DNA from: a virus
Lineage: Duplodnaviria; Caudoviricetes
Length of the DNA: 64,000 nucleotides
Direction: 5' to 3' (one strand)
Virus record (IMG/VR): IMGVR_UViG_3300031998_002794
Location: 714 to 64,713 of that record
Shown here one piece after another: positions 9,542 to 15,767 of this stretch. The position numbers and the translations under genes are program-made. Position 1 is the stretch's first letter, and every line of letters begins with the position of its first letter. A model generated the notes under the pieces. The model was not told where the DNA came from. It did no database searches and saw only the letters and a list, made by a program, of their open reading frames with translations.

Positions 9542-9569
9542 TGGGATGGTGCCAACCGTCCCATTTTTA
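9542..9569 (+). terminator. intrinsic terminator after nrdG
   Basis: TGGGATGGT-gcca-ACCGTCCCA followed by TTTTT. Confidence 0.8.
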
Positions 9570-9630
9570 GTTATATTGCTATTGAACATACTTCATAAAC
9601 TACAACTATAAATAAACAAAAGGAGATTCT

Positions 9631-11436
9631 ATGAAGTTATTAAAATACATCATCATCGCATTGGTGCTGCTTTGCTCAAGCGGATTTGCTGTGGGCCTTG
9701 CAGATGGAGCTGCCAAGTTCGTTGGCAACATCACTACTAACGGTCAGGTCCGTTCGGACTTTGGTCAGTACTGGAACCAAATCACTGCAGAGAATGAATG
9801 TAAGTGGGCGTCTATTGAAGGCAGCCGTGGAAATTATAACTGGCGTGGTTGTGACGCTGCTTATAATTGGGCAAAGCAGAATAACGCTCACTTCAAGTTT
9901 CATGCTCTCGTCTGGGGTTCTCAATATCCAAACTGGTTGAATGGACTTTCAGTTGACGAAACGAAGAAAGCAATTACAGCTTGGTTTGACGCAGTTAAGA
10001 ACCATTATCCTGATTTGGAAATGATTGACGTAGTTAATGAAGCCATCAAGTCAGGTGGTTCATATCACTCTGGATACGGTAACGGAAACAACATTATTGG
10101 TGCTCTCGGCGGAGACAATGGAAATTATGAATTCGTTGTTACTGCCTTTAAGATGGCTCGTGAACGATGGCCAGATGCTATCTTAATTTATAATGACTAT
10201 AATACTGTCCAGTGGCAGAAGAATGAAGGTATTGACCTCATCAATAAGATTAAGAAAGCTGGTGCTCCGGTAGACGCTTACGGACTTCAGGCACACGACA
10301 TGCAGAAGGCTGGTGGCGGTAACGGCGGTACTGGTGGTGGCGGTACCTGTTTGGACATTAATCAGTTGAAGTCCGCTATTGAAGAAATTTGGACAAAGAC
10401 ACAGATGCCAATGTTCATTTCAGAATATGATATTGCTTCTGACGATGACAATGACCAGAAGAACTGTTATTCTCAACAGATCTCATACTTTATGGAAAAT
10501 GAACATATCGCCGGCATTACTTTGTGGGGCTACATCTATGGCTCAACTTGGACTACTAACGGCAACTCCGGCATTATTAAGAATGGACAAGATCGTCCTG
10601 CTATGACATGGCTCAAACAGTACTTGGCAGAAAATAAAGGCGTGAACTCGACTGGTCTTCCAACAGGCGACGGCGTAACTATCGTTGAACCTGAACCTCA
10701 GAAACCTTTCAAGGGTAAGGCATTTGATTTGACTGCTCCTATTGAAGCGGAAGACTTTGACATCCCAGGAAAAGGCGCCGGTAATAATTCATATCTCGTA
10801 TCTGGTGATTGTGATGATGTATGGAACACAACCTATCGTTCTGGCACTTCTGTAAAGATTGGCGATAAGAATGGTGGAATGGTAATTGGATGTAATGCAA
10901 CAGGCAACTACTATCAGTACACAATTAAGGTTCCTGAAGCTGGTAACTACATTGTCTATGCTACCGTAGCCGCTGATGGCGAAGGCGCTATTCTGTTCAA
11001 AGTTGGCGACAAGGCAGTATCTGATACAATGAAGTTCACAGGCGACTCATGGTCTAAATTTGATAAGATTAAGGGACATGCAACCTTCAGCTCTGATGGT
11101 GAACAGATCTTGACCCTTGAAATTGCTCAGGGCTACATTGATGTTGACAACTTCGAGTTTGCAGTAACTGACTGTGCTCCAGGAGATGTAACTTGCGGTG
11201 GTCCATCATACAACTGTGATGCTTATCCTGATGATCCTATGTGCAAGACTGTTGACTTTGACTTCCGTCTCGCAGAACAGAAGGTACTTAAGCTTTGGTC
11301 TGCCTTTGACGCTAATGGGAAGTGGATGGGAAATGTATCTGCCTATACAGCAGATGACGCTATCCGTTTCATGAAGTTGAAACCGGGCCTCTATATCATC
11401 AAAGCAAACGGTAAGTGGCAGACAGTAATTAAGTAA
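9631..11436 (+). CDS. secreted GH10 endo-1,4-beta-xylanase with a CBM6-like module and a Fibrobacter-type C-terminal domain
   Basis: Signal peptide; NQITAENECKW, FHALVWGSQYP, DVVNE (acid/base Glu at 10039), YNDYN, GLQAH, ISEYD (nucleophile Glu at 10423), GITLWG; IEAEDFD-initiated beta-sandwich; C-terminal FDANGK..G.YIIK. Confidence 0.92.
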   Translation: MKLLKYIIIALVLLCSSGFAVGLADGAAKFVGNITTNGQVRSDFGQYWNQITAENECKWASIEGSRGNYNWRGCDAAYNWAKQNNAHFKFHALVWGSQYPNWLNGLSVDETKKAITAWFDAVKNHYPDLEMIDVVNEAIKSGGSYHSGYGNGNNIIGALGGDNGNYEFVVTAFKMARERWPDAILIYNDYNTVQWQKNEGIDLINKIKKAGAPVDAYGLQAHDMQKAGGGNGGTGGGGTCLDINQLKSAIEEIWTKTQMPMFISEYDIASDDDNDQKNCYSQQISYFMENEHIAGITLWGYIYGSTWTTNGNSGIIKNGQDRPAMTWLKQYLAENKGVNSTGLPTGDGVTIVEPEPQKPFKGKAFDLTAPIEAEDFDIPGKGAGNNSYLVSGDCDDVWNTTYRSGTSVKIGDKNGGMVIGCNATGNYYQYTIKVPEAGNYIVYATVAADGEGAILFKVGDKAVSDTMKFTGDSWSKFDKIKGHATFSSDGEQILTLEIAQGYIDVDNFEFAVTDCAPGDVTCGGPSYNCDAYPDDPMCKTVDFDFRLAEQKVLKLWSAFDANGKWMGNVSAYTADDAIRFMKLKPGLYIIKANGKWQTVIK

Positions 11437-11460
11437 ACTGTTTGACATTATTTACAGTAA

Positions 11461-11485
11461 GGGACGCGAAAAGCGTCCCTTTTTT
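11461..11485 (+). terminator. intrinsic terminator
   Basis: GGGACGC-gaaaa-GCGTCCC followed by a T run. Confidence 0.85.
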
Positions 11486-11585: not shown

Positions 11586-14500
11586 ATGAAAAAGATAATT
11601 CTATACATCTTGGCTTTTGCGGCCGCCCTCTTCGCAGCTGAGGCAGACGTAAAACCACTTGTCTTCACAGGAGTCGCTGACCAGCAGGCTCAATACGAGT
11701 ACATGCTACAGTATAAGCTCTATGGCTACGAATACTTGAAGATCGGCCAGAATGACACCATTCCTGATAAGTCGGGATGGAACGGTTCTGAAAAAGAAAT
11801 TACAATGAACCATCAAGTAGTTCTTGGTGGACCAATCTTGACGCAAGGCGCTTTTACAGTCGGTAACGGTACTGACTTGAAGACTGGACCTGTCAGAGCG
11901 CAGTCAATGACGATGGGTAATGACAACGGTTCTAACTTTGCGGGCAACTATTGTGTAGCCGATGGAGTTTCAACTCAAATTTCCAACATCATCACTCGAA
12001 GCGAAGGCAAAGTATCTTGTGATTCAGTACCAGCTGCCCCGTCTGGGCTTCAGATGCCTACTCTCGTCTTCCCTGACACAACAGCAATGGAAATTACCGT
12101 GCCTGACCGTGGAAAGGTCTACATAGATATTCCCGACGAGCCAACCGTTGATATGTTTATTAAGTCTATCACAACAGGTACTGAAGACACATTGTATTTC
12201 CGTATGAAGAACAAGGGAACTCTTACTCGTGTATTCGTTGAAGGCTCTATTTCCTTCGGCAACCACACGGTAGTTCAGGTTGTGTATGCCTCACCTGATG
12301 GAGACAGCGTAATTACACAAGACAAGTTCCGTGGCAACCTCATGTTCTATACACAGGAAGACTTTAACATTCGTAACACTGACTATTCCAAGCTGCAAGG
12401 AACTTATATCTCCACAAAGAAGATTAACTTAATTTCAAACATTGACTTTGCTGGACAGTTGCTTGCTAATGAACTTGAGATTGGCGATAACTTCAGTGGT
12501 AAGAATTTCAGATTCGTTAAGTTCAACCCAGATACTCTTGACTTTCCTGAGTTGAATAAGCAAGGCGGCTTGAGAGAAAATGACAGCACAGTCATTATTC
12601 CGATTGAACTTAGTGATACATCAACTATTGAGGTATTCTTTACATACTGCTTTGATATGAAGGACGGAGTCACTGTTGAAGACTTCAACCAACCGCCATT
12701 CATTCCTGTATGTGGAGATACATCAATTACCACAAAGATTCCTATCGGTTCTAAGGCGCCAGTAGATACGATTAAGGTCAATGTAAAGGTAGATACTCTC
12801 GTAGAACCAAATGAATACTTGATTATGCACATTGACAGTATTAGTGGTGCGGTTTTGCCTAACGGCGAGACTTCAGGCGAGTTGAAGATTAAGATCATTG
12901 ATGCTAAGGCTGATACGAACAGAGCTCCGAAGTTCGCTACGGAAGATACTACTTTGTTCATTCCTGAAAACACAAAGCCAGGAATTATTGGAACTATTGC
13001 AGCGACTGACCCGAATGGCGACAAGTTGTCATACACCATTCTAGGAACGGTGCCATTCATAGTAGACAGCGTTGGCAATATAAGTTCTACAAGAGAGTTT
13101 GACTTTGAGAAGGAAAAGCAGTTCACATTCAAGTTGGTCGCTTCCGATGGTAAGTTAACTGACACTTGTAAGGTAACTGTTAAAGTAACTGATGTAAATG
13201 AGCCTGTTCATGCAAAGGACACAACCTTCAGCATAGATGAAGGTAAAGTCGGCGACCTAGGAAAGATAACAGGGGAGGACGAAGATGGAAAGCCTGTTAA
13301 ATTTACTGTCAATGATACTAATGCTTATCGCATCGATAGCACTGGGATACTTACCTTGGTAACTCCGTTTGATTACGAGAAACAGAAGACCGACACTGTG
13401 ACTGTATATGTTACTGATGGAACATTTACAGATTCTGCTATCGTAATCATCAACATTAAGAATGTGAACGGTAACCCTGAACTTCAACCAAATGACAGTT
13501 TGACTGTTCCTGAGAACTGCAAGAGCTGCATCGTTGGTATCATTACTGCAACTGACCCAGATAATGACCCAATTACCTATGATGTAATTCAGCAAGGATT
13601 TACGATTGACAGCAACGGCGTGTTGAAGTTGACTGACCCGCTTGACTTTGAAACAACACCTGAAGTAAAGATCACAATTCTTGCGAAGGATCCGAACGGT
13701 GGTGCAGATACTGCTATCTACGTCGTCAAGGTTACAGACATCAATGAGCCTGTTCATACAAAGGACACTACTTGTTCTGTAAAGGAGAATTACACAGGAA
13801 AGATCTGTAAGGTGACTGGTACTGATGAAGATAAGACAACTCCGACATTCATCATTTCTGACACAACTAATTATTCTATTGACTCAACAGGAACTATCAC
13901 TATCAAGAACCCGATTGACTATGAAAAGAAGACAAAGGACACTGTAAAGGTTATCGTCACTGACGGTGAATTTGCAGATACTGCGACTATCATCATACGA
14001 GTACTTGATGAGCCTGAAACAGTCGAGATTACAAAGTGGGACGATGAAAAGCCTAAGGACACTGTAAAGACTAACGATCCTGACCATCGCTTTGAATGGC
14101 AGGTATGCGAAGGCGACACTTGTAACGGTCACATCGAGACACCTCACATCAGAAAGGACACAACAATTAAGGTATGTAACGACAAGAAGACAGTATGCGA
14201 CTCTATCGTTGTTCTGTTCAATGACGCCCCTCCTGTGGTCACATTGACAAATGCGAAGAGCACAGACGCCTACATTGACTACATCACTATTGAGGAAGTT
14301 AAAGACGATAAGATCTACGTAAACAAGAAAGATAATCAGTTGACTGTGACTGTCAAGGACACTGTCCACAAGACAACGAAGTCCTTCCCAATTGACGTCA
14401 AGCTAGATACAGTCCATGTAAGTTCCAAGAACATCAAGGACTATTCATACTTGATTGACGAAACATTGGCGACATACACATCAATTGGTAATGGTAAGTT

Positions 14501-15767
14501 CGAGAAGAAGGAAGTTATCAAGGACGGCGATGTAGTTATTACATTGACTCAAATCGTTGATAAGCATCACGACAACTTGGACACTGTGCAGACCGTTACT
14601 TACACTGTCAAGCAGGATGGAAAGGAATTGACCATTTCTTATCAGACTGACAACTTGACAGGAACACGAGTTTCTGACTACAAGGTTGCATATAAGATTG
14701 ATTCTTGCACAACAGTTTCTTACTACTTGGACGACAATAAGAAGATCTCCAAGAATAAGGAAGGCAACATCGCTTATACTGTGACATACGACTATACCGA
14801 CGATTTCGGCAACAAGGCATCTTCAAAGGTTGACATTATCTTTGACGATATTCCGCCTAAGGTTCAGATCTTGTCGCCGACTGACTTCGAGAAATTCAAC
14901 TCTAACGCTGTAAACGTAAAGTGGACAGTAAATGGAGAGGTTCAAGATACCTTGACATTGCAGCGCCTCACTAAGGGCGTGAACCACGTCGTCAGACGCT
15001 ACGTTGATAAAGCCGGCAACGTCGCTACTGATACTGTGACTGTGATTATGAATGAAGCAAAGGACATTGACATTAGCCTCGTTCATCCAGTAACAGAAGT
15101 TGACCAAGACAAGGTTGACGAATGGTATAGCGACTCGCATAACAAGTATGATCCTAAGAAGCCTTACGTCATCAAGACAGTAGACCCTAAGAATGACACT
15201 TTGCCTGACGTTATCGGCGTTGGTTTCAAGGTTGACATTGCATTGCCTTCTGTCTCGCCGACTGGTGGTTTGGCAACACTTGATGATATCGTCAAGAACG
15301 GCCAGATTCCTGTTGATGACAAGGGACATATAGTTGGTGCTTCTACTAAGGGCATTCCTGTAGACCAGTATGTTGAAGAACATTGCACAGAAGACTTCAA
15401 GAAGGACTACAAGAAGCATGGTCTCAACATTCCATTGTATGATGTGACCTACAACATGCACTTGTGGATTTACACAACTCAAGCAAACTACGTAAATGAC
15501 TTCGTTGTAGAATATACATTGAACGACGAGGACAAGGCCACATCGGCTGGTACTGTTCAGATGGTCATTGACTGGCTCTCTGACAAGGATGGAAATGTAA
15601 AGGCTAAGAATCACCATTCACTTGGAACTTCTAGCTACATTACATCGCTTTACGCAAAGTCTGTCGCTAAGCATCGCTGCGACTACAATGAACAGAAGAA
15701 AGGCGACAAGACTGTAAAGAAGGATGAAACAATGAAGGTCTTCGGTTACAAGCGTCCGAAGAAATAA
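11586..15767 (+). CDS. secreted cadherin-repeat surface protein (Calx-beta-like, 4 cadherin repeats, Ig-like domain, C-terminal FGYKRP domain)
   Basis: Signal peptide MKKIILYILAFAAALFA; four ~90-aa repeats with PEN, DxD, D(F/Y)E and DxNEP Ca-binding motifs at 12918-14018; Ig-like DIPPKV..YVDKAGN. Confidence 0.85.
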   Translation: MKKIILYILAFAAALFAAEADVKPLVFTGVADQQAQYEYMLQYKLYGYEYLKIGQNDTIPDKSGWNGSEKEITMNHQVVLGGPILTQGAFTVGNGTDLKTGPVRAQSMTMGNDNGSNFAGNYCVADGVSTQISNIITRSEGKVSCDSVPAAPSGLQMPTLVFPDTTAMEITVPDRGKVYIDIPDEPTVDMFIKSITTGTEDTLYFRMKNKGTLTRVFVEGSISFGNHTVVQVVYASPDGDSVITQDKFRGNLMFYTQEDFNIRNTDYSKLQGTYISTKKINLISNIDFAGQLLANELEIGDNFSGKNFRFVKFNPDTLDFPELNKQGGLRENDSTVIIPIELSDTSTIEVFFTYCFDMKDGVTVEDFNQPPFIPVCGDTSITTKIPIGSKAPVDTIKVNVKVDTLVEPNEYLIMHIDSISGAVLPNGETSGELKIKIIDAKADTNRAPKFATEDTTLFIPENTKPGIIGTIAATDPNGDKLSYTILGTVPFIVDSVGNISSTREFDFEKEKQFTFKLVASDGKLTDTCKVTVKVTDVNEPVHAKDTTFSIDEGKVGDLGKITGEDEDGKPVKFTVNDTNAYRIDSTGILTLVTPFDYEKQKTDTVTVYVTDGTFTDSAIVIINIKNVNGNPELQPNDSLTVPENCKSCIVGIITATDPDNDPITYDVIQQGFTIDSNGVLKLTDPLDFETTPEVKITILAKDPNGGADTAIYVVKVTDINEPVHTKDTTCSVKENYTGKICKVTGTDEDKTTPTFIISDTTNYSIDSTGTITIKNPIDYEKKTKDTVKVIVTDGEFADTATIIIRVLDEPETVEITKWDDEKPKDTVKTNDPDHRFEWQVCEGDTCNGHIETPHIRKDTTIKVCNDKKTVCDSIVVLFNDAPPVVTLTNAKSTDAYIDYITIEEVKDDKIYVNKKDNQLTVTVKDTVHKTTKSFPIDVKLDTVHVSSKNIKDYSYLIDETLATYTSIGNGKFEKKEVIKDGDVVITLTQIVDKHHDNLDTVQTVTYTVKQDGKELTISYQTDNLTGTRVSDYKVAYKIDSCTTVSYYLDDNKKISKNKEGNIAYTVTYDYTDDFGNKASSKVDIIFDDIPPKVQILSPTDFEKFNSNAVNVKWTVNGEVQDTLTLQRLTKGVNHVVRRYVDKAGNVATDTVTVIMNEAKDIDISLVHPVTEVDQDKVDEWYSDSHNKYDPKKPYVIKTVDPKNDTLPDVIGVGFKVDIALPSVSPTGGLATLDDIVKNGQIPVDDKGHIVGASTKGIPVDQYVEEHCTEDFKKDYKKHGLNIPLYDVTYNMHLWIYTTQANYVNDFVVEYTLNDEDKATSAGTVQMVIDWLSDKDGNVKAKNHHSLGTSSYITSLYAKSVAKHRCDYNEQKKGDKTVKKDETMKVFGYKRPKK
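12918..14018 (+). repeat. four tandem cadherin-like repeats (protein level)
   Basis: Repeats 2 and 4 both start VH(A/T)KDTT and contain IDS(T)G and D(F/Y)EK; repeats 1 and 3 contain PEN..ATDP. Confidence 0.85.

Follow-up and report, generated by a model that had tools for sequence, protein, structure and literature searches.

A gene for a predicted Fibrobacter-type GH10-CBM6 xylanase in T4-like jumbo phages

Background

What is a gene for a plant-polymer-degrading enzyme of bacterial type doing in the genome of a tailed phage, and where did it come from? The question was raised by a stretch of 64,000 nucleotides (nt), hereafter called the window, which corresponds to bases 714-64713 of a 64.7-kb IMG/VR virus record (IMGVR_UViG_3300031998_002794) rated 17% complete. 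The window carries a gene for a predicted secreted GH10 xylanase with a CBM6 module and a short C-terminal domain (CTD). Its analysis supported the presence, inside a phage genome, of an intact multimodular GH10-CBM6-CTD enzyme of Fibrobacter type. This gene was retained under purifying selection; it was gained and lost as a cassette, and it recombined with host genes.

Glycoside hydrolase genes were previously reported in virome surveys, which listed a GH10 xylanase among the carbohydrate-active enzymes (CAZymes) of mangrove soil viruses (PMC6460857) and GH16 and GH114 enzymes in rumen viral genomes (PMC10465536). The gene described here is likewise a host-type, plant-polymer-degrading CAZyme on a virus genome. 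The genes from the surveys are annotations on virome contigs, whereas the present one was also found in jumbo phages with closed genomes of about 420 kb. In addition, its donor family was traced, selection was measured, and retained export signals and evidence of return transfer were recorded. In the literature searched, we came across no Fibrobacter phages, no jumbo phages with this xylanase and no phage-encoded cargo of the type IX secretion system (T9SS). Fibrobacter ranks among the main degraders of cellulose in the rumen and, to our knowledge, its phages are essentially undescribed.

Domain organization and catalytic residues

A first, sequence-only reading of this locus had proposed a GH10 xylanase, and annotation with profile hidden Markov models upheld this classification. 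The Pfam profile Glyco_hydro_10 (PF00331) matched amino acids (aa) 26-328 with an E-value of 1.4e-55 and a score of 189.2 bits, far above the curated cut-off of 22.1, and the match spanned positions 18-308 of the 311 in the profile. Both glutamates regarded as catalytic in that reading were confirmed at codon level. The VVNE stretch begins at aa 134 (nt 10030) and the codon of Glu137 occupies nt 10039-10041; ISEYD begins at aa 263 (nt 10417) and the codon of Glu265 occupies nt 10423-10425. In the HMMER alignment, these stretches coincided with VVNE and ITEFD of XynB (4pmx/4pn2), regarded in GH10 enzymes as the acid/base (Glu137) and nucleophile (Glu265) motifs, respectively. The two other motifs that had been pointed out, ENECKW and HALVW, were found at aa 54 and aa 91. 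Among 50 aligned homologues, residues E54, N55, K58, W59, H91, W95, N136 and E137 were invariant, and so were Q220, H222, D223, E265, D267, W299 and W307.

The AlphaFold2 model of the protein had a mean predicted local distance difference test score (pLDDT) of 82, with values of about 85-97 over the GH10 barrel. Its top Foldseek matches in the PDB were all natural GH10 xylanases or proteins engineered from them, the best one being XynB 4pn2 (TM score of 0.88 on the target, E 2.9e-27). XynB from Xanthomonas axonopodis pv. citri (4pmx, 4pn2, 4pmy) was also the best solved relative of the GH10 domain at the sequence level (E 2e-50, 32% identity). This bacterial enzyme consists of a single domain of about 305 residues in the crystal and, unlike the window protein, it has neither a CBM6 nor a sorting tail.

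The CBM6-like module of the sequence-only reading corresponded to a Pfam CBM_6 match (PF03422) at aa 402-510 (E 1e-9, 39.2 bits against a cut-off of 28.9). It was modelled as an all-strand domain with a pLDDT of about 90 and showed weak sequence matches to the solved CBM6 modules 2cdo and 2y8k. The protein is named here a predicted endo-1,4-beta-xylanase, the CBM6 of which would bind xylan.

The signal peptide claimed earlier also displayed the expected features. MKLLKYIIIALVLLCSSGFA/VG conforms to the n/h/c and -3/-1 rules: a basic n-region is followed by a hydrophobic core, and small residues occupy positions -3 and -1, which points to Sec-type export. In the model it formed a helix at aa 2-16 with low pLDDT. 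A hydrophobic N-terminus was kept in every phage and Fibrobacter copy, although this region is fast-evolving. A lipoprotein signal at Cys15 was considered and rejected: the cysteine is preceded by V-L-L, with no small residue at -1, and its position is not conserved among the copies.

Location in jumbo phage genomes

Nearly all long open reading frames (ORFs) of the window lie on one strand. According to PHROG and Pfam matches, the xylanase gene is preceded by genes for a DNA helicase, NrdD and NrdG, and followed by genes for a portal, a major head protein, a baseplate wedge and a tape-measure-like protein. The major head protein shared 86% identity with that of a 139-kb virus contig, and 58-59% with its counterparts in two complete phages of 424,163 and 415,750 bp. 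Both of these genomes have direct terminal repeats and are rated 100% complete; each contains exactly one GH10 gene, the CBM6 of which is the only one in the genome. Altogether, the GH10 gene was recorded on at least 12 independent virus contigs. The carrier is a T4-like jumbo phage of roughly 400 kb, of which the window represents about 17%. The GenBank phage collection yielded two weak partial matches only (29% identity) and no isolated phage with the gene.

Origin within Fibrobacter

Genomic contexts were read from IMG/VR loci for viruses and from GTDB loci for prokaryotes. Prokaryotes were searched through contigs of one genome per species, where 38 loci were found, 34 of them close. All 34 belonged to Fibrobacter or Fibrobacteraceae, mostly as metagenome-assembled genomes (MAGs) from the rumen. 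These copies covered 97-100% of the query at 52-69% identity, the best one reaching 69% over the full length. They occur as tandem arrays, in which 2-5 paralogues of 590-650 aa sit beside conserved chromosomal neighbours. The genomes concerned measure 2.9-3.6 Mb, with 4-6 GH10 genes per genome. A maximum-likelihood tree was built from 80 sequences; in it, the phage copies, 10 in number, formed one clade (SH-aLRT 100) located several nodes deep inside the Fibrobacter family. As judged from this nested position, the phage gene originated inside the tandem GH10-CBM6-CTD family of Fibrobacter. The claim of an auxiliary gene of host origin on a bona fide virus genome therefore stands, the gene being flanked by phage genes, present in two complete phage genomes and nested in a Fibrobacter family.

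The best documented members of this family are FSU_2292, FSU_2293 and FSU_2294 of F. succinogenes S85, tabulated as GH10-CBM6-BTD proteins with signal peptides (PMC3079729). Two of them, FSU_2293 and FSU_2294, are characterised xylanases (PMC3079729, Table 3), and the S85 Xyn10 cluster was up-regulated in the cell envelope on cellulose (PMC6851124). Compared by tabulated architecture, the window protein has the same order of parts as this cluster, i.e. signal peptide, GH10, CBM6 and a short C-terminal domain, and it matches the Fibrobacter family in all GH10 catalytic and substrate-site residues. The earlier view of a host-type secreted enzyme rather than a tailspike depolymerase agrees with this, since the protein is co-linear with the Fibrobacter enzymes and displays no fusion to a tail domain. 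In contrast to the S85 cluster, the window gene is phage-encoded and occurs as a single copy outside any chromosomal tandem array. Because it stands alone among phage genes, it is best regarded as a xenologue of the Fibrobacter family and not as a member of a chromosomal cluster. Phage copies further distinguished themselves from the Fibrobacter ones by an additional 26-aa linker with four cysteines, by a tail of 54-62 aa instead of about 70, and by a GC content at third codon positions (GC3) about 20-30 points lower.

Selection, composition and the four-cysteine linker

Synonymous divergence (dS) between phage copies was saturated, ranging from about 1 to over 2.5. The ratio of non-synonymous to synonymous divergence (dN/dS) was 0.04-0.10 for GH10 and 0.06-0.25 for CBM6 between phage copies, and the partly conserved linker at aa 336-400 displayed values of 0.05-0.14 between the window copy and other phage copies. 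GC3 was 42% in the window copy (window GC 42%) and 26-35% in copies from phages of 34% GC, as compared with 62-71% in most Fibrobacter copies. Such strong purifying selection, together with a phage-matched composition, fits a retained auxiliary gene.

The four-cysteine linker, which the sequence-only reading had not mentioned, follows the pattern TDCAPGD..CGGPS.NC....DP.C over 26 aa between CBM6 and the tail, and was modelled with low pLDDT. All 12 phage copies possess it, as opposed to none of the 73 Fibrobacter copies. A collection of 5.8 billion proteins was also searched, and its 120 best matches were 68-100% identical to the window protein, some of them encoded on contigs of 270-415 kb. 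About 117 of these 120 displayed the linker (113 by the strict pattern and 4 by eye). At 90% identity, the family fell into more than 100 clusters. The presence of the linker in nearly all of these matches, at such a range of identities, indicates that the phage form is abundant and diverse in metagenomes.

A mobile cassette exchanged with the host

The gene was found in four different phage contexts. In the group of phages to which the window belongs, the order is NrdD-(NrdG)-GH10-cadherin-repeat protein. In two syntenic relatives (L060 and L061, NrdD 76% identical), NrdD runs straight into the cadherin-repeat gene, with no GH10 at the site. They differ from a third locus, L062, by a clean block of 2.35 kb containing GH10 and an 82-aa ORF. 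This small ORF (L062:12550-12798) has a hydrophobic stretch and travels with GH10 in the block. Likewise, no GH10 was found anywhere in G107, an IMG/VR genome of 411,059 bp that is 98% complete (locus L073; NrdD 72% identical). The gene is thus dispensable to the core virus cycle, as these relatives lack it. It is an accessory, mobile and mosaic cassette and not a fixed core gene of the phage family.

The mosaic aspect was clearest when domains were analysed separately. In the CBM6 tree, phages formed one clade (support 99). In the catalytic-domain tree, they fell into two separate groups, both of which also contained Fibrobacter copies (support 98 and 100). A single vertical descent of the whole gene in phages was therefore rejected, as the full-length and CBM6 trees give one phage clade and the catalytic domain gives two groups that include Fibrobacter.

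One of the Fibrobacter copies was particularly informative. L008_5962 is a chromosomal gene (L008:5962-7728) on a Fibrobacter MAG contig of 179,672 bp. In the catalytic-domain tree, it was sister to the copy L044 of the complete 416-kb phage G002 (support 99). At the nucleotide level, both shared 84-89% identity in GH10, as opposed to 37% in the signal peptide, 66-67% in CBM6 and 36% in the tail. Conversely, the CBM6 of L008_5962 shared 98% identity with that of another Fibrobacter gene (L004_1897), compared with only 66-76% between their catalytic domains; the tail of L008_5962, together with CBM6, also displayed 98% identity to another Fibrobacter gene. Composition followed the same boundaries, as the GC3 of L008_5962 was 30-45% in the GH10 segment and 59-76% in its own CBM6 and tail, with 61-72% in the GH10 of its tandem neighbour. 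These alignments are most simply read as the return of a copy of a phage-evolved catalytic domain to a Fibrobacter chromosome, in a way resembling phage-to-host gene conversion. Recombination with host genes, as read from the trees and identity profiles, occurred in both directions. The GH10 similarity between phage and L008_5962 implies that DNA of these phages meets that of Fibrobacter. It is the best evidence on the host, and these phages probably infect rumen Fibrobacter.

The C-terminal tail and type IX secretion

The tail of the window protein aligned with those of Fibrobacter paralogues, with D..G, G.Y and a basic last strand conserved. The corresponding host domain, BTD/FPm-1, was proposed by Raut et al. 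as a T9SS signal removed from the mature enzymes, since it overlaps TIGR04183 in some enzymes and yields no peptides in the mature proteins (PMC6851124). TIGR04183, the profile of the T9SS type A sorting domain, matched 16 of 50 family members at E <= 0.01. Among phage orthologues, it scored 23.1 bits in G005 and 22.9 in G004 (23.2 with neighbours), both of which thereby reach the cut-off of 23.

Modelled alone, the tail displayed a pLDDT of 86.5 and about 50 ordered residues forming four strands and a helix. Solved T9SS CTDs appeared among the top rows of both fold searches, none of them above unrelated background rows: the RgpB CTD 5ag9_B (Z 4.3, root-mean-square deviation 2.2 over 44 residues), 8glk_D (Z 4.3) and 8glj_D (Z 3.8), as well as 8gl8_D (Foldseek E 0.15), 8gl6 and 8qb1, were all at background level. 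A comparison of the tail profile with PDB sequences gave the RgpB CTDs 5hfs and 7pq4 at non-significant E-values of 0.4-0.8 only.

Like T9SS type A CTDs (TIGR04183; RgpB 5ag9 and 5hfs; 8gl6, 8gl8, 8glj, 8glk), the tail is C-terminal, small and beta-rich, and the D..G and G.Y motifs and a basic terminal strand are conserved in it as well. Its homologues include Fibrobacter tails that do reach the TIGR04183 cut-off. Yet, with its four strands and helix, it is shorter than the seven-strand sandwich of solved T9SS CTDs. By homology, the tail likely belongs to the T9SS CTD family. In all 4 Fibrobacter genomes tested, SprA (TIGR04189), the T9SS translocon, scored 1103-1154 bits; it was detected in none of the 14 controls. 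The xylanase was the only T9SS-tailed or CBM6 protein found in the phage genomes searched.

Expression signals

The motif TATAAATA, the T4 late-promoter consensus, had 10 exact occurrences in the window, all on the + strand, as compared with 2.1 expected; none of 100 shuffles reached 10. All sites but one are located 12-37 nt ahead of a start codon, several of them directly after terminators, and the motif precedes the terminase N-half, a baseplate gene and the xylanase (16 nt before its ATG). These sites constitute a T4-like late promoter set. Upstream of the xylanase, the same region can also be read as a sigma-70-like promoter (TTGAAC-19-TATAAA), and the L062 orthologue is preceded by TTGACT-17-TATTTT with no TATAAATA. 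The promoter class of the xylanase, late or sigma-70-like, is thus ambiguous in its sequence. With its own promoter-like region, ribosome-binding site and terminator-like hairpins on both sides (Table 1), the gene has the layout of a self-contained transcription unit, from promoter to terminator.

Proposed function and alternatives

The explanation that we favour, and consider probable, is that the gene encodes a Fibrobacter Xyn10-type xylanase carried by a T4-like jumbo phage of about 400 kb infecting rumen Fibrobacter, exported through the T9SS and bringing the phage a pay-off of the kind that it brings the host. During infection, the gene would be transcribed from its own phage promoter. 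The pre-protein would cross the inner membrane through Sec by means of its signal peptide, and its C-terminal domain, by homology, would pass it to the host T9SS and further to the outer membrane or to vesicles. This surface placement is modelled on the proposal made for the host's own fibrolytic enzymes. There, CBM6 would hold the enzyme on hemicellulose and GH10 would cut xylan, as suggested by the intact catalytic and substrate-site residues.

As for the benefit, xylose can be neither taken up nor used by F. succinogenes, although this bacterium hydrolyses xylan (PMC3079729). The advantage would therefore lie in access to cellulose or in loosening of the matrix, and not in sugar supply. Stripping of hemicellulose may keep cellulose, and so energy, flowing through the long infection of a jumbo phage, and the fibre matrix around the infected cell may loosen as an additional pay-off. 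The label "auxiliary metabolic" given by the sequence-only reading has to be adapted accordingly to this host physiology: a retained auxiliary gene it is, but "metabolic" is a loose term where the host cannot use xylan, and the gene is accessory rather than core.

Several observations weigh against this explanation. Activity, expression and secretion are predictions for every phage copy. The gene is not universal, as seen above for G107 and for the corresponding site in the syntenic relative, so that its benefit would be conditional. The search for a CRISPR-spacer link to Fibrobacter, in which 20 kb of the window was compared with 101 Fibrobacter genomes, found none; it gave four matches of 29-33 nt with 88-93% identity (E 0.002-0.009 per genome), which were treated as chance because none lay in a repeat array. 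TATAAATA before the gene suggests late transcription, leaving little time for a metabolic pay-off. Other points concern the tail, which is 8-10 residues shorter than the host one in the window protein and evolves fast, with a dN/dS of 0.3-0.6 between phage copies (values are similar in Fibrobacter pairs). Its last strand region is truncated in two phage copies (L041 and L043). TIGR04183 scored 17.2 bits in one search and 19 in another on the window tail, below the cut-off of 23, and the fold searches gave no match at Foldseek E <= 0.001 or Z >= 5, T9SS CTDs ranging from Z 3.4 to 4.3. Of the sorting-type C-terminal domain announced earlier, the homology to the Fibrobacter tail was thus recovered, whereas its profile score remained below threshold and its fold match weak.

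A second explanation, which we hold to be possible but distinctly less probable, is that the xylanase acts in dispersal. Made late and freed at the cell surface, on vesicles or at lysis, it would loosen the hemicellulose around fibre-attached Fibrobacter and let the very large virions leave and reach neighbouring cells. The T4-type late motif TATAAATA before the gene, as before terminase and baseplate genes, would be in line with such a role, and so would the lack of any sugar gain for Fibrobacter from xylan (PMC3079729) and the syntenic, adhesin-like cadherin-repeat neighbour (1393 aa, with a signal peptide) in group A phages. Yet, the promoter class is ambiguous, the L062 orthologue being preceded by a sigma-70-like promoter without TATAAATA, and the retained CTD favours ordered export over mere release by lysis. 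Otherwise, the sequence by itself does not separate dispersal from the metabolic explanation.

The distribution of the gene might also suggest a host-derived cassette drifting through phage genomes, merely shuttled between Fibrobacter strains without benefit to the phage. The four genomic contexts, the clean indel between syntenic relatives, the absence from a 98%-complete relative and the domain exchange with host genes would all be expected from such a passenger. We nevertheless consider this improbable. Between phage copies, dS is saturated (1 to over 2) and yet dN/dS remains at 0.04-0.15; the phage genomes differ by about 8% GC, and the gene is fully adjusted in composition to each of them; the phage-only linker is kept in 12 of 12 copies; and exactly one copy occurs in each of two complete genomes, the major head proteins of which are just 58-59% identical to that of the window. 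These features together indicate a long residence in phages under selection.

It is more doubtful still that the protein is a virion-associated depolymerase, i.e. a structural or tail-fibre enzyme digesting polysaccharide on the way to the receptor. The late-type promoter motif and the adjoining large, repeat-rich, surface-type protein would be compatible with it, but the predicted Sec signal peptide and export tail would direct the protein out of the cytoplasm, where virions are assembled. Moreover, it is not fused to any tail, fibre or baseplate domain, its architecture is co-linear with host enzymes from the first to the last residue, and the substrate of GH10 is plant xylan and not a bacterial envelope polymer.

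Finally, an assembly or binning error that fused host DNA to a phage contig, to which one might attribute the fact that the nearest cellular relatives all come from one bacterial genus, has next to no likelihood: at least 12 independent virus contigs carry the gene, two of them closed genomes with terminal repeats, and non-syntenic virus loci match Fibrobacter loci in GH10 only and not in the flanks, which together exclude misassembly, while GC3 is phage-like, the linker phage-only and the signals on both sides of phage type.

Implications

A broader proposal can be put forward, albeit as a tentative one that we think rather less likely than the export of a xylanase with a host-type pay-off. 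In this proposal, a lineage of jumbo phages of about 400 kb would display a phage-evolved xylanase by means of the host T9SS and would act as a reservoir returning diverged catalytic domains to Fibrobacter. If so, it would be the first phage-encoded T9SS cargo, and phages would directly shape the fibrolytic enzyme repertoire of a key cellulose degrader of the rumen. Under the favoured explanation itself, infection could alter fibre breakdown by adding a secreted hemicellulase, beyond the killing of degraders. The retained export tail would provide a natural test case for the use of the T9SS by phages, and the exchange of catalytic domains would give phages a part in the evolution of host fibrolytic genes, as well as a sequence-based means of host assignment. 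The naturally diverged GH10-CBM6 set, with its more than 100 clusters at 90% identity, is useful for enzyme work, and G107 offers a natural minus-gene comparison for its xylanase-bearing relatives.

Coordinates and neighbouring genes

Table 1. Features of the xylanase gene and its surroundings in the window
Feature	Position (nt)	Strand	Basis or remark
Terminator-like hairpin and T-run closing the upstream nrdD-nrdG unit	9542..9563	+	9 pairs, 5 GC, then TTTTT
Promoter-like region	9582..9614	+	TTGAAC (9582-9587), 19-nt spacer, TATAAATA (9607-9614)
Ribosome-binding site AAGGAG	9620..9625	+	5 nt from ATG
Whole coding sequence	9631..11436	+	601 aa plus stop, ATG start
Predicted Sec-type signal peptide, aa 1-21	9631..9693	+	Cleavage likely after GFA, sequence rule
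GH10 (beta/alpha)8 catalytic domain, aa 26-335	9706..10635	+	Pfam, alignment, AlphaFold2 model
Linker, aa 336-400	10636..10830	+	Partly conserved (PEPQKPFKG...EAEDFD)
CBM6 beta-sandwich, aa 402-510	10834..11160	+	Pfam PF03422, model
Phage-clade-specific four-cysteine linker, aa 513-538 (C515, C522, C529, C538)	11167..11244	+	Alignment
C-terminal domain, aa 540-601 (62 aa)	11248..11433	+	Homology to Fibrobacter BTD/FPm-1 tail; candidate T9SS type A sorting signal
Terminator-like hairpin and T-run closing the xylanase unit	11459..11481	+	9 pairs, 6 GC
TATAAATA sites	3348, 5636, 6276, 9607, 15822, 18752, 30950, 37138, 41561, 42461	+	

No tRNAs were found in the window. Directly downstream of the xylanase (11586-15767, + strand) lies the gene for the signal-peptide protein with cadherin/Big_9 repeats mentioned above, which is syntenic with GH10 in group A phages at 59-80% identity. 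This protein had one relative in the species-representative prokaryote contigs, located on a 4.5-kb contig binned as Clostridia (L054) that is probably a phage fragment; this sole relative gives no independent clue to the host. On the other side of the xylanase, nrdG was not found between nrdD and GH10 in L051/L062 and L040/L080; it does lie between them in the window and in L053/L083. In the former relatives, the gene for this activase is either located elsewhere or absent from the part of the genome covered.

Another recurrent motif, TATTGAC, has 16 occurrences on the + strand of the whole window, as compared with 4 on the - strand; it may be a -35-like element belonging to a class of early or middle promoters. 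It was also observed upstream of GH10 in L062 and upstream of the cadherin-repeat gene in L060.

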